Assembly: GCA_038206475.1 (NCBI GenBank)
Contig: JBBRAU010000002.1
Span: 13,892 to 77,891 of the forward strand
Source: Patescibacteria group bacterium
GTDB taxonomy: Bacteria > Patescibacteriota > UBA1384 > JBBRAU01
DNA: 64,000 bases
Direction: 5' to 3'
Below the pieces are notes generated by a model that ran no database searches, was not told the origin of the DNA, and saw only the letters and a program-made list of their open reading frames with translations. Below are positions 1 to 37,202 of the stretch, piece by piece. Positions within the stretch are counted from its first letter, which is position 1. Each line of letters opens with the position of its first letter. A program made the position numbers and the translations under genes.

Positions 1-69
1 ACCGTCTACTTCCTGATGGCCAACACCGTACGCGCCGCTGAAGAGCAATCAGCTGACAAACTACGCTAA
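1..69 (+). CDS. 3' end of an unidentified CDS (partial at window edge)
   Basis: Frame open from position 1 to TAA at 67-69 (..TVYFLMANTVRAAEEQSADKLR*); too short to identify. Confidence 0.25.
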   Translation, partial: TVYFLMANTVRAAEEQSADKLR

Positions 70-150
70 TACTGCTACTATTACGCCTGAGTTGAGGGTT
101 GTTGTGTATATTACTCACATCTGGCAAGCGGAGCTTGCCGCCTCCGGCGG

Positions 151-180
151 TAAGAACCTCTCGCTACGCTCGAGAACCTT
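151..180 (+). repeat. Copy of recurring intergenic motif (half A: TAAGAACCTCTCGCTACGCTCGAGAACCTT) upstream of tRNA-Ala
   Basis: 26/30 identity to the sequence just 3' of the tuf stop (read on minus strand) and strong similarity to the one after the rpsN stop. Confidence 0.5.
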
Positions 181-237
181 GCAGACATGCTTCATCTCTC
201 AGTCCAGCCCCCATACTTCGCATGGTGTCTGAACTGA

Positions 238-313
238 GGGCCTGTAGCTCATCTGGTAGAGCGCAGCATTCGCATTGCTGAGGTAAGGAGTTCGAGTCTC
301 CTCAGGTCCACCA
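238..313 (+). tRNA. tRNA-Ala (anticodon CGC)
   Basis: 76-nt cloverleaf read by eye: acceptor GGGCCTG/CAGGTCC with G3:U70 Ala identity pair, D-arm GCTCATCTGGTAGAGC, anticodon loop TTCGCAT, T-arm GGAGTTCGAGTCTCC, encoded CCA. Confidence 0.85.
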
Positions 314-395
314 TTGGCTAGTCATCTGACAAGATGGCTGGCCAATGGTTTATTAAAGGCTCGAACGACCAGCGAGCTTGCGAGCTGGAGTTGGG

Positions 396-414
396 TCACG
401 AGCGAAGCGAGTGG
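396..414 (+). repeat. Copy of recurring motif half B (TCACGAGCGAAGCGAGTGG)
   Basis: Matches TCACGAG-N-GTAGCGAGTG present in the tuf/rpsJ and rpsN/rpsH spacers. Confidence 0.35.
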
Positions 415-441
415 GGATACTCGGCGAACGCAGTGAGCCAA

Positions 442-464
442 GGGCCTGTCTCCTCAGGTCCACC
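442..464 (+). repeat. Truncated tRNA-Ala-like repeat (acceptor 5' strand fused to the 3' T-arm/acceptor end)
   Basis: GGGCCTGT + CTCCTCAGGTCCACC reproduces tRNA positions 238-245 and 298-312 with the internal 52 nt missing. Confidence 0.45.
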
Positions 465-563: not shown

Positions 564-1727
564 TTACGATTCGATGCCGGACGTACCGGCAGTGCTCAGT
601 GCGCTAATGGTAATTGCTGTATCAGGGTGGACAACTTCCACCCAAATTGTGCCACGGACGAGTGGAATTTCGTTGCCACCTTGATCATAAAAACGAGTGC
701 GGCCAGTCCCCTTTCTTTTCCAGGTTCCAGCCGTAGCCTGTCCGTTCTCTATAACCACGGCTTTGTTGCTGCCGGTGGTTGTGTATTGCCAAATTTGTTT
801 ATCGCCAGCCTCGGTCAGGGATTTACGTTCGACTGTTTGCAAAATAATCGTTTTGGCCACAATCTGCTGATGCGTCTCCGCGTCGAGGTGTGGCTTGCCG
901 GCCATTGTCCGGCTGTAGCTACTCGTGGCCATGTCATATGTCCAGTTCACAGCAAAGCCTGGTGTTGAAAAATCAATTTTGACCGTTTGGCTGGCTGGAC
1001 GATCCGTCTCGGCGACGTCATCACGAAATAGCCACGGGGCAAAGTTGGCGCCGGTCGGCCAGCGATTAATAACGGTCGCCACCTTCCAAAGCTTATCGGT
1101 CGACGAATACATCGTATGCTCAAGCGCCACTTTTTTATTACTATCGCGGGCGTAAGCCGCCGCGCCAACCGTAAACTGGTTGAGGTCAAAGACATGGGTG
1201 GCGGCAATTTGAGCCAGGGCCGGCTCGCTACCACCAACATGAGCATAAAAGGCACCGAGCTCCGTCGCCCAGTCAATATAGTACGTGCGGGCGCTGCGCA
1301 CCGGCCCTACACGCTGCAGCTGGCGCGGATCGGCGTAGACAGCCATAAAGCGAGTAATGCCGCCTTCAGCGATGGCCTCGTACACTAGGTCGGCCGCGGC
1401 CAAGCCAGACTGCGGCCGGGCATCGGGGTGGTTCTCGATCATGACCGCCAGTGGGTGTAGCTTAGTGGCGTCAGATGCCACCAGTTTGCCGGTGAGGATA
1501 TCAGGCTCTAGCTGCGGCGAAACAACGGGGTTGGGCTGCAGCACCGCTGCGAACGGAGCCGTCAAACAGACCCTGTCGCAGTGCAAACGCTTGCCCCAGA
1601 CAATAACGGTGTACACCAAGGCGGCCAGAATAATACAGATGATAGCGCCGCCAATCAGGCGCCGGGCATGTGGTTTTGGCGCGGCTGTTGGCAGCTGGTC
1701 ACCCCCAGAGCTGATGAAAGACTTCAC
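564..1727 (-). CDS. DUF3048-like (YerB-like) protein with N-terminal membrane anchor
   Basis: 387-aa ORF; hydrophobic N-terminal segment; recalled DUF3048-like blocks (VMIENHPDARPQSGL, ITRFMAVY). Confidence 0.55.
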   Translation of the reverse strand: MKSFISSGGDQLPTAAPKPHARRLIGGAIICIILAALVYTVIVWGKRLHCDRVCLTAPFAAVLQPNPVVSPQLEPDILTGKLVASDATKLHPLAVMIENHPDARPQSGLAAADLVYEAIAEGGITRFMAVYADPRQLQRVGPVRSARTYYIDWATELGAFYAHVGGSEPALAQIAATHVFDLNQFTVGAAAYARDSNKKVALEHTMYSSTDKLWKVATVINRWPTGANFAPWLFRDDVAETDRPASQTVKIDFSTPGFAVNWTYDMATSSYSRTMAGKPHLDAETHQQIVAKTIILQTVERKSLTEAGDKQIWQYTTTGSNKAVVIENGQATAGTWKRKGTGRTRFYDQGGNEIPLVRGTIWVEVVHPDTAITISALSTAGTSGIES

Positions 1728-2060: not shown

Positions 2061-3770
2061 TCAAGTCGCAACCGGTGCCGGCACAGTGATTGTAGTTGGT
2101 TCAGCCGCCTGAATTTCATCAGGTGCTGGCACTTGGGTCTGGTGATTGAGGTCAAATAGACTAACGCCGGTCATGTCAAAGCCCAGCGGACACTGCAACA
2201 ACTGCAACATGGTCGGCGCCACATCGGCCAAAACGCCTTGCGGCCGGAGTGGCCAAAGTTGACTCTGATCAGAAGGTATATAGAGAAATGGTACCGGGTT
2301 CATGGTGTGCTCGGTTTCGGCCTCACCACTTTTGGGGTTAAGCATTTCCTCGGCGTTGCCGTGGTCTGCCGTCAGTAGCGCCGCGCCGTGGTGGTTCCAG
2401 GTCTCTTGGACAATTTGACCAACCAGTTGATCTATCAAGGTCAAAGCAGCGACAGTCGCCGGAAAATTGCCGGTGTGGCCAACCATGTCTGGGTTGGCAA
2501 AATTCAAAATAATGACATCGTCATGGCGGCGGCGGATACGGGCGGTCACCTCAGCAGTTATGGCCCGGGCCGACATCTCCGGTGCCTGGTCGTACGTTGC
2601 AACTTTGACTGAGGGCACTAAAAAACGCTCTTCACCGGGATAGGGCTGCTCATGTCCGCCGTTGAAAAAGTAGGTCACGTGCGCATATTTCTCTGTTTCG
2701 GCAATGTGAAACTGGCGCAGACCATATTTTGCCAGCACCGCCCCGAGCGGCTCTTTCGGGTAGGCCGGATGAAACGCCGGAATAGCCGGTAGTCGGTCTT
2801 CATAGCGGACAAAGGTGACAAAGTAGAGGCCATCAAATTTATGATCTATCTGCATTTTGTGCATATCCGGCACGGTAAAGGCGGCGGTCAGTTGACGGGC
2901 GCGGTCTGGCCGGAAATTGAAAAAGATAAAGGCGTCGTTATTCTCGACTGGTGCTTTCGGTTGGCTGGCGCTGGCAATGACTGTCGGCACTAAAAATTCA
3001 TCAGTCAGGCCGCGGGCGTAGGCTGATTGTAGCACTTGCTCTGCTGTCGGCATTACCTCGCCTTCAGCTTTAGCGATGGCCCGCCAGGCTTGGCTGGTAC
3101 GCTCCCAGCGATTATCACGATCCATGGCGTAAAATCGACCGGACAGGCTGGCAATACGAACATACGAGCTAAGATCAGAGGTTTGCAAATAGCGTGTTAG
3201 CTTGGCTATTTCGGTTAAGCCGGACATCGGCGGCGCGTCGCGGCCGTCGGTGAAGAGATGCAGCAGCACCTCCGGCGGCCGACCGGGCGTGGCGCTAATG
3301 CGCCAGCGAATTAATTCCAGCAAAGCGTACAGGTGATCGGCTGAACTATGCACGGTACCTTGGCCAAACAAACCAAGCAAATGCAAACGCGTGCCGTGCT
3401 CAACAGCGTAAGTAATGGCACCATTTAAGGCCGGATTATCAAAAAAACTCTGGTTATGGATGAGTGAGGAGATGTAGCTGTAGTCTTGCTTAACAATGCG
3501 TCCAGCGCCTAAATTTAAATGGCCAGCCTCTGAGTTGCCGCGCGTTCGCGGCGGCAGGCCAACTGCCTGGCCGCTAGCATCGAGTGAAGCGTGCGGAAAA
3601 TTACGCAAATAATTGAAAAAATTTGGCATAGCGGCTGAGGCCTCGGCATTGCCGCCCCACAGCGGCGCCTCGCCAAAACCATCCAAAATTAAGAGTACGA
3701 GCGGACGCGGCACTCCAGCCACCTGTTTACGGGCATGAAAATCGTCGCTTGAAAACGGCCACATACTCAT
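2061..3770 (-). CDS. gpmI: 2,3-bisphosphoglycerate-independent phosphoglycerate mutase
   Basis: 569 aa; LILDGFG, GNSEAGHLNLGAGR, FTDGRD and TADHGN-type motifs of iPGM. Confidence 0.9.
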   Translation of the reverse strand: MSMWPFSSDDFHARKQVAGVPRPLVLLILDGFGEAPLWGGNAEASAAMPNFFNYLRNFPHASLDASGQAVGLPPRTRGNSEAGHLNLGAGRIVKQDYSYISSLIHNQSFFDNPALNGAITYAVEHGTRLHLLGLFGQGTVHSSADHLYALLELIRWRISATPGRPPEVLLHLFTDGRDAPPMSGLTEIAKLTRYLQTSDLSSYVRIASLSGRFYAMDRDNRWERTSQAWRAIAKAEGEVMPTAEQVLQSAYARGLTDEFLVPTVIASASQPKAPVENNDAFIFFNFRPDRARQLTAAFTVPDMHKMQIDHKFDGLYFVTFVRYEDRLPAIPAFHPAYPKEPLGAVLAKYGLRQFHIAETEKYAHVTYFFNGGHEQPYPGEERFLVPSVKVATYDQAPEMSARAITAEVTARIRRRHDDVIILNFANPDMVGHTGNFPATVAALTLIDQLVGQIVQETWNHHGAALLTADHGNAEEMLNPKSGEAETEHTMNPVPFLYIPSDQSQLWPLRPQGVLADVAPTMLQLLQCPLGFDMTGVSLFDLNHQTQVPAPDEIQAAEPTTITVPAPVAT

Positions 3771-29523: not shown

Positions 29524-29574
29524 TCACGAGTGTAGCGAGTGAAGAGTCTCTGGAGCGTAGCGACATGGTACTTA
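29524..29574 (-). repeat. Recurring bipartite intergenic motif (copy between rpsN stop and rpsH start)
   Basis: Minus-sense TAAGTACCATGTCGCTACGCTCCAGAGACTCTTCACTCGCTACACTCGTGA; about 82% identical over ~50 nt to the tuf/rpsJ copy. Confidence 0.6.
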
Positions 29575-32021: not shown

Positions 32022-32052
32022 TGCTTATCTTTCCAATATATTCAGTTAATGC

Positions 32053-32100
32053 TTTTCACTCGCTTCGCCTGTTTATCGACAGACAGACTCGTGATGAACA
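32053..32100. repeat. Partial, inverted and interrupted copy of motif half B in the rpsC-rplP spacer
   Basis: Plus-strand TTTTCACTCGCT ...(27 nt)... CTCGTGAT. Confidence 0.3.
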
Positions 32101-32168
32101 TGAGAATAACCTTTGGTCTGTTTTGATCTTGTTTACTTTACTTGATTTTTGACTTTTCTTCAATGAGC

Positions 32169-37152: not shown

Positions 37153-37202
37153 TCACGAACGTAGTGAGTGAAAAGGTTCTGGCGCGTAGCGACAGGTTCT
37201 TA
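37153..37202 (-). repeat. Recurring bipartite intergenic motif (copy between tuf stop and rpsJ start)
   Basis: Minus-sense TAAGAACCTGTCGCTACGCGCCAGAACCTTTTCACTCACTACGTTCGTGA; the TAA is the tuf stop codon. Confidence 0.6.

Follow-up and report, generated by a model that had tools for sequence, protein, structure and literature searches.

As an example of local partial tRNA repeats we take the repeated tRNA-Tyr 3' ends that lie distal to Escherichia coli tyrT. Duplicated tRNA 3' ends are also a product of integrative elements: according to Islander (PMC4383910), the repeat left at an attachment site (att) is limited to the 'displaced fragment', meaning the part of the tRNA between the crossover and its 3' end, and the two copies bracket the DNA of the element. 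As for the enzymes that handle tRNA, the G3:U70 pair is the basis of alanyl-tRNA synthetase (AlaRS) identity (PMC8583063), minihelices of the alanine type can be charged (PMC11392972), and model hairpins are cleaved by RNase P (PMC3035440). Here we describe a truncated copy of tRNA-Ala at positions 442-464, and a neighbouring hairpin-repeat motif at 396-414, in a 64-kb stretch of DNA (contig JBBRAU010000002.1, positions 13,892 to 77,891; hereafter the window) from an uncultured Patescibacteria bacterium of the candidate phyla radiation (CPR). The truncated copy is probably a lineage-specific, non-coding pseudogene fragment of the adjacent tRNA-Ala(CGC) gene that arose by local duplication or repair.

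The two features on which this assignment rests are the following:

238-313, + strand: intact tRNA-Ala(CGC) gene with the CCA encoded, the parent of the truncated copy (ARAGORN; Rfam RF00005, 63.9 bits)
442-464, + strand: truncated tRNA-Ala(CGC) copy ('minihelix'), with stem 442-448 / 455-461, loop 449-454 and ACC at 462-464

The copy, GGGCCTGTCTCCTCAGGTCCACC, is made of two pieces of the tRNA: positions 442-449 equal nt 1-8, that is, the 5' acceptor strand GGGCCTGT, and positions 448-464 equal nt 59-75, the match being exact over 17 nt. The two pieces share a GT at the junction (the copy is nt 1-8 plus nt 59/61-75), and there are no mismatches at any of the 25 positions compared (25/25). The longer piece is a direct repeat, present at 296-312 and at 448-464 in the same orientation as the tRNA gene and beginning in the T-loop; the 5' acceptor strand lies immediately before it. 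This agrees with the initial annotation, which had read 442-464 as the acceptor 5' strand fused to the 3' strands of the T-stem and the acceptor, and had placed it 130 nt after the intact tRNA; the measured gap is 128 nt (314-441). When the last 22 nt of the tRNA were compared with the 300 nt downstream, the score exceeded that of 500 out of 500 shuffles. Searched for elsewhere, the 23-mer GGGCCTGTCTCCTCAGGTCCACC proved to be single-copy in the window even when up to 3 mismatches were allowed (0/100 shuffles yielded matches), and across the 64 kb there are just three matches of at least 12 nt to either tRNA-Ala, all located in the spacers that adjoin the two tRNA genes.

Read as + strand RNA, the copy has a predicted fold of -12.5 kcal/mol in which a 7-bp stem closes a 6-nt loop, with ACC and then T on its 3' side. 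It retains G3.U70 as a G.U pair, as well as A73 and CC, and the helix is better formed on the tRNA-sense strand. Because G3 was kept, giving G.T instead of a perfect complement, the 5' arm appears to descend from the 5' strand of the tRNA and not from an independent hairpin. Neither ARAGORN nor Rfam makes a tRNA call at 442-464.

The route that we infer is one of duplication plus deletion, with no function for the product. A local duplication or templated-repair event would have copied the neighbouring tRNA-Ala(CGC), and nt 9-58/60 would have been lost at the 2-nt GT microhomology. What remained would be the two acceptor strands joined by T and the 3' T-stem strand, and then ACC. No integrase and no specific function would be needed, and the copy would persist at most as one more tolerated hairpin.

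A DUF3048 gene points with its 3' end towards tRNA-Ala(CGC), and the hairpin-rich spacer that separates the two convergent genes holds both the 396-414 motif and, at its edge, the copy. The order of the surrounding genes is as follows:

1-66, + strand: C-terminus of FolD, at the left end of the window
564-1727, - strand: DUF3048 gene
1870-1945, - strand: tRNA-Ala(GGC)
2061-3770, - strand: iPGM

The genome has a G+C content of ~54%. Its nearest public relatives are metagenome-assembled genomes labelled Saccharibacteria or Berkelbacteria, at 55-63% amino-acid identity: homologues of the window's proteins peak at 55-63% for DUF3048 and 58% for iPGM, and the top DUF3048 match among GTDB representatives, which do not include the window's genome, is 58% identical. 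The loci anchored on DUF3048 are not syntenic with the window and have no tRNA nearby (in locus L071, none within 10 kb). In three relative loci (L071, L072 and the P0026 locus) DUF3048 follows GH18 and LytR_C, but in the window a tRNA-Ala gene lies on either side of it, the two tRNA genes being convergent; because the context of DUF3048 differs in the relatives, we take the tRNA genes to mark a synteny breakpoint. Most of the iPGM-anchored loci are likewise non-syntenic, and the informative ones are L075 and L082/L083. The iPGM-tRNA-Ala(GGC) order is retained in L075, and the FolD-tRNA-Ala(CGC) order in L075 and in L082/L083; the FolD proteins of the window lineage and L075 are ~49-51% identical.

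The tRNA-Ala(CGC) genes of L082/L083 are identical to that of the window in the acceptor strands and in the 3' strand of the T-stem, and in the 300 nt downstream of them there is no repeat of the tRNA 3' end. Since these syntenic loci lack the repeat, the fragment appears to be lineage-specific, with the proviso that L082/L083 are distant relatives. By the initial annotation, an arrangement shared by all relatives would have spoken against its proposal; at the 49-63% amino-acid identity of the nearest relatives the arrangement is not conserved, L082 having the FolD-tRNA-Ala(CGC) order and no repeat. At the CGC locus of L075 we found no 3'-end repeat in the 111 nt at hand, and a scan of metagenomes with the 3' 32-mer of the tRNA returned three distant low-GC CPR loci, all without the fragment. 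One further contig (L081, an independent Logan assembly of SRR19962014) is 100% identical to window positions 1-372 and ends there, 70 nt before the fragment; the break falls where the hairpin-repeat cluster begins, which suggests a repeat- or structure-induced assembly break.

The L075 genome carries a minihelix of its own at its tRNA-Ala(GGC) gene. It begins 16 nt after the tRNA, occupies positions 3238-3275 of that locus and reads GGACC-gtag-AATGCC-ttgc-GGCATT-aaag-GGTCC-ACCA. Its final segment (3265-3275, AGGGTCCACCA) is an exact 11-nt repeat of the GGC tRNA 3' end located 43 nt downstream of the gene (1/500 shuffles), and pairs with GGACCGT, in which 5 of 7 bases match the 5' strand of the tRNA and the change of G3 to A gives an A-U pair. 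A 6-bp hairpin is enclosed by the two strands of the minihelix, and within the region 3238-3313 the minihelix precedes an intrinsic terminator, the stem of which starts at the minihelix ACCA. The window's GGC locus has no minihelix of the L075 type. At the tRNA-Ala genes of this clade, then, acceptor-stem minihelices are a recurrent feature, but a lineage-specific one in each case.

Another tRNA-like piece lies upstream of tRNA-Ala(GGC) in the window, where positions 2002-2023 on the - strand (GGGTTCGTGGCTCAGTTGGCAG, read from 2023 to 2002) resemble nt 1-22 of that tRNA at 18 out of 22 positions. Pairing of the piece with 1961-1974 gives a long hairpin (-29.6 kcal/mol, z -4.1) that has at its apex an A/T variant (1979-1997) of the 19-nt unit described below; the 3' arm of this long hairpin is also complementary to the D-arm region of tRNA-Ala(GGC). 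We rejected the reading of the 77 nt upstream of this tRNA as a fully decayed tandem tRNA, as the similarity beyond the first 22 nt is at the level expected by chance. Together, the tRNA fragments found near tRNA-Ala genes (2002-2023 on the - strand; 3238-3275 in L075) indicate recurrent small rearrangements at these sites. The equivalent upstream position in L075 holds GGGCCCTT (3062-3069) and a GA-type hairpin (3071-3089). We also observed -10-like boxes that abut the 5' end of tRNA-Ala(GGC) in both genomes: TACGAT|GGG in the window, with TTGCCA 18 nt upstream (1946-1975, - strand), and TACAATAT|GGG in L075 (3120-3145). If these boxes are real promoters, tRNA-Ala(GGC) would have almost no 5' leader.

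Several points weigh against a functionless relic of local duplication. The copy and the tRNA do not share homologous flanks (5/8 bases agree on the upstream side, 0 on the downstream side), which is not what a simple segmental tandem duplication would predict. The perfect 25-nt identity stands beside degenerate repeat units, which suggests either a recent event or constraint / gene conversion. The L075 minihelix, with 11 nt kept, pairing restored and a position upstream of a terminator, hints at selection for such helices. Finally, the nearest relatives, at 49-63% amino-acid identity, are too far away for base-level alignment of the spacer.

The spacer between the tRNA and the copy, and the region upstream of the tRNA, contain the following further features; bit scores of individual units are those of the covariance model introduced below:

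310-355, + strand: terminator-like hairpin, with an 18-bp stem (310-327 / 332-349) and a 4-nt loop, then TTTATT
370-387, + strand: degenerate hairpin-repeat unit, CAGC-GA-GC-TT-GC-GA-GCTG (9.1 bits, E 0.3 in the first 2.2 kb; a weak match, assigned by architecture and tandem position)
396-414, + strand: hairpin-repeat unit, T-CAC-GA-GC-GAA-GC-GA-GTG-G, termed 'half B' in the initial annotation (29.5 bits)
422-440, + strand: hairpin-repeat unit equivalent to 'half A', C-GGC-GA-AC-GCA-GT-GA-GCC-A (11.7 bits, local E 0.047; also supported by alignment of the two-unit elements)
148-185, + strand: single hairpin-repeat unit with conserved flanks (TAAGAACCT-unit-AGAACCTT) and core 157-175, between FolD and the tRNA; the 'half A' partner of the initial annotation
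434-446, - strand: 13-nt exact match to tRNA-Ala(GGC) nt 2-14, overlapping GGGCC of the copy and the 3' half of unit 422-440

The stem of the 310-349 hairpin begins at the ACCA of the tRNA. Its predicted stability is -31.3 kcal/mol on the + strand (z -8.9) as compared to -21.6 on the - strand, and two mismatches in the stem become G.U pairs on the + strand only. A scan for consensus terminators did not flag 310-355. In L075, the terminator stems that follow tRNA-Ala(CGC) and the minihelix likewise start at a tRNA-type 3' end, and for this reason the 310-349 hairpin looks like the native terminator of the tRNA. Downstream of it, three tandem units of the 19-nt hairpin repeat occupy 370-440. Folding of the entire 300-475 region gives -81.2 kcal/mol (z -6.1) on the + strand versus -60.7 (z -2.3) on the - strand.

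Other readings of the spacer were rejected. The open reading frame (ORF) at 334-555 had no Pfam match and was not accepted as coding. A decayed tRNA on the - strand at 343-447 was dismissed, since neither a T-arm nor acceptor pairing is present and neither ARAGORN nor Rfam reports a match. Rfam reports a weak tmRNA_permuted match at 286-448 on the + strand (20 bits versus a gathering score of 47, E 0.19), which we regard as a by-product of the order T-arm/acceptor-CCA ... GGGCCUG, ARAGORN finding no transfer-messenger RNA. The motif CCAAGGG, considered as a recurrent feature near tRNA-Ala genes, has 8 copies in the window versus ~7.8 expected.

For the 396-414 motif, TCACGAGCGAAGCGAGTGG, there are matches with 3 mismatches each to 29524-29542 and, on the opposite strand, to 157-175, the chance expectation being 0. 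An alignment of six units (157-175 on the - strand, 396-414, 29524-29542, 29549-29567, 37153-37171 and 37178-37196) reveals the common architecture T-NNN-GA-NN-GNA-NN-GA-NNN-R: an outer stem of 3-4 bp, tandem GA, a 2-bp inner stem and a GNA triloop. Under this hairpin model 97% of cells are paired, 3 of the 6 pairs show compensatory double changes and 0/500 shuffles reach the score, while shifted registers on the same alignment drop to 19-58% paired. The tandem GA lies in a CGAG context, and G.U pairs favour the strand reading GAGCGNAGCGAG. Nearest-neighbour energies of the 19-nt units are unremarkable, and support for the hairpin therefore rests on covariation and not on energy.

The covariance model made from these six units was used to find further copies, among them the A/T-variant upstream of tRNA-Ala(GGC) (1979-1997, 18.1 bits) and a strong one in L075 at 30-48 (26.8 bits). 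The three best non-seed nhmmer matches of the motif are all intergenic, and no Rfam family matches the element. In the alignment the units are part of a larger two-unit element: GAACC-T, unit A, AGAACC-TT, unit B. Two instances (29524-29567 and 37153-37196; genes on the - strand) lie a few bases past the stop codons of rpsN and tuf in the ribosomal-protein gene cluster, and a homologous one is found in L075 (1-55), a relative with only ~50-57% protein identity. The two-unit copy at 396-440 is complete, with unit B at 396-414 and unit A at 422-440, and has a unit spacing of 26 nt versus 25 nt at 29524/29549 and 37153/37178; its chromosomal orientation is that of the ribosomal-protein-operon copies, which here is the sense orientation of DUF3048.

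The initial annotation had described 396-414 as a copy of 'half B' inverted relative to the 'half A' upstream of the tRNA. It is a genuine copy and is inverted relative to 157-175; however, as 396-414 and 422-440 form a two-unit element of their own, 'half B' is not simply the inverted partner of the upstream unit. The motif is unrelated in origin to the tRNA copy at 442-464. Candidate roles for the hairpin element lie in RNA processing or stability, in termination and in protein binding. A mini-peptide reading of the motif in the ribosomal-protein spacers was rejected, since on inspection the substitutions between copies are neither conservative nor synonymous.

Some isolated occurrences deserve record. 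A 147-nt gap between two ORFs in the window (32022-32168), which we take to be rpsC and rplP, contains part of the motif, reversed in orientation and interrupted by ~18 nt (TTTTCACTCGCTTCGCC ... CTCGTGA). In a distant CPR contig of 37% G+C (L070, 1431-1449) the tRNA-sense strand reads GTCTCGCTTCGCTCGGTAGAACC, with the near-identical core CGAGCGAAGCGAG; this core and an AGAACC flank lie ~30 nt downstream of the tRNA-Ala(CGC) of that contig, which is the sole exact core match among the 70 loci compared. Between FolD and tRNA-Ala(CGC), L075 (6668-6710) and L082 (3385-3430) have a hairpin of the form GTCATTCCGAGG...CG..GGAATCCCG. Given that it sits where the window has the single 19-nt unit, the hairpin between FolD and the tRNA is conserved in position and variable in sequence.

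How else could the copy have come about? The initial annotation suggested an old remnant of an integrative element, and there the tRNA-derived remnant stands, while its origin from an attachment site is poorly supported. In such a scenario, which we consider very unlikely, an element would have recombined with the tRNA 3' end, duplicating GTCTCCTCAGGTCCACC, and later deletions would have removed almost all of that element, so that the intact tRNA as attL and the displaced fragment as attR now stand 128 nt apart. The same-orientation 17-nt direct repeat of the tRNA 3' end, starting from the T-loop, is the canonical signature of such events (PMC4383910), the locus is a synteny breakpoint, and GGGCCTG-TCTCCT-CAGGTCC has a 7-6-7 dyad layout that, as judged from the letters, could resemble the core site of a tyrosine recombinase. 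However, the 5' arm is the tRNA's own acceptor strand GGGCCTG(T) including G3, and not a perfect inverted repeat, and its presence is not expected from duplication at an att site. Native-type elements fill the 128 nt in between, namely the terminator-like hairpin and three hairpin-repeat units. As the initial annotation had already remarked, no integrase is nearby: Pfam identifies no recombinase among the nine ORFs within 12 kb downstream, and the 3 kb upstream, as represented in L081, encode PEGA, sortase, tRNA-Leu and FolD. IMG/VR contains 0 exact matches to the 17-mer, which is weak evidence given the poor sampling of CPR viruses. Moreover, the element would have to have been lost near-totally, to 128 nt here and again to 43 nt in L075.

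A functional mimic of the tRNA-Ala acceptor stem – transcribed, read by tRNA-handling enzymes and co-evolving with the adjacent tRNA – is unlikely. In its favour, the 7-bp helix has retained G3.U70, A73 and CC and is better formed on the tRNA-sense strand, the 25 nt are perfectly conserved, the 300-475 region folds much better on the + strand, and the L075 analogue ends in ACCA, precedes a terminator and carries the pairing-preserving G3-to-A change. The most plausible case would be an RNase P cut at the 5' side that severs the trailer or terminator, and otherwise recognition by the CCA-adding enzyme or by AlaRS via G3.U70 and A73. Yet a microhelix of only 7 bp that lacks a T-arm would be a poor substrate for RNase P. 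The helix also sits after a very strong terminator-like hairpin (-31.3 kcal/mol), making transcription from the tRNA promoter doubtful; its 3' tail is ACC-T, not ACCA; there is no conservation at orthologous loci, the L082 CGC locus being without the copy and the window's GGC locus without the L075 element; and the A3-U70 pair of the L075 version rules out a shared AlaRS-dependent role. A wider version, in which the clade's tRNA-Ala-derived minihelices (442-464; L075 3238-3275) would be functional RNAs kept in step with the adjacent tRNA, for example as RNase P recognition hairpins, strikes us as somewhat less probable again; if true, minihelices could cut tRNA trailers or terminators via RNase P in organisms with a reduced RNase repertoire. 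The least probable of the explanations considered is a one-step mosaic patch, in which repair or replication restart would have inserted 31 nt (434-464) by switching between three templates close by – tRNA-Ala(GGC) nt 14-2 as the reverse complement, tRNA-Ala(CGC) nt 1-8 and its nt 59-75 – with GGGCC and GT microhomologies at the joins. It would account for the 13-nt exact opposite-strand match to tRNA-Ala(GGC), which abuts and overlaps the copy and is one of only three matches of at least 12 nt to either tRNA in 64 kb, and for the fact that all pieces are perfect and the outer flanks unrelated to those of the tRNA. But TGAGCC, 6 of the 8 non-forced bases within 434-446, belongs to the 3' half of hairpin unit 422-440, pairing with 423-429 at the expected spacing after 396-414, and so the match may be largely coincidental (rough estimate p ~0.001-0.005 given the motif constraints). 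The 434-446 match may thus be a third tRNA-derived patch of a mosaic or in part a coincidence.

A relic of local duplication or repair, as preferred here, carries a caution: a duplicated tRNA 3' end alone is no evidence of past integration, and the anatomy of this one argues against it. It also marks tRNA-Ala genes as hotspots of small-scale rearrangement at synteny breakpoints in a streamlined CPR genome. The side results are maybe worth more: the minihelices that recur after tRNA-Ala in two related genomes, and the conserved 19-nt GA/GNA element without an Rfam counterpart.

Among described systems, 442-464 resembles tRNA pseudogenes and partial repeats from local duplication in that a short stretch of exact tRNA sequence follows closely on the parent gene, with no mobile element. 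It differs from the tyrT repeats in being single-copy, in having an internal deletion that leaves exactly the acceptor helix, and in that no unit is repeated together with its flanks. With the displaced fragments that mark the ends of genomic islands and prophages (attL/attR; Islander, PMC4383910), it has in common that an intact tRNA gene is followed by a direct repeat of its 3' end; unlike them, it includes the 5' acceptor strand, has 128 nt of native-looking DNA in between, and is accompanied by neither an integrase nor an attP in IMG/VR. The AlaRS minihelices and microhelices (PMC8583063, PMC11392972) and the hairpin substrates of RNase P (PMC3035440) resemble it in the 7-bp acceptor helix, G3.U70, A73 and CC, and the L075 analogue ends in ACCA. 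Those are laboratory constructs, whereas the copy has T in place of the terminal A, lies after a terminator-like hairpin and is not conserved.

The 396-414 motif, in turn, is akin to palindromes of the REP (repetitive extragenic palindromic) and BIME (bacterial interspersed mosaic element) type in being short, extragenic and imperfectly palindromic, in occurring singly or in tandem, and in its covarying stems. It is unlike them in that the unit is only 19 nt long and its inner stem is always flanked by tandem GA on either side, that it is shared by genomes with ~50-57% protein identity, that its orientation is mostly locked to transcription, and that its copy number is low (64 kb examined). 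No transposase, of the RAYT type or any other, was present among the nine ORFs checked by Pfam (first 12 kb). The core of the motif, GCGAAGC / GCGTAGC, is identical to the sequence of the d(GCGNAGC) GNA mini-hairpin, the stability of which is extraordinary (PMC13037366).

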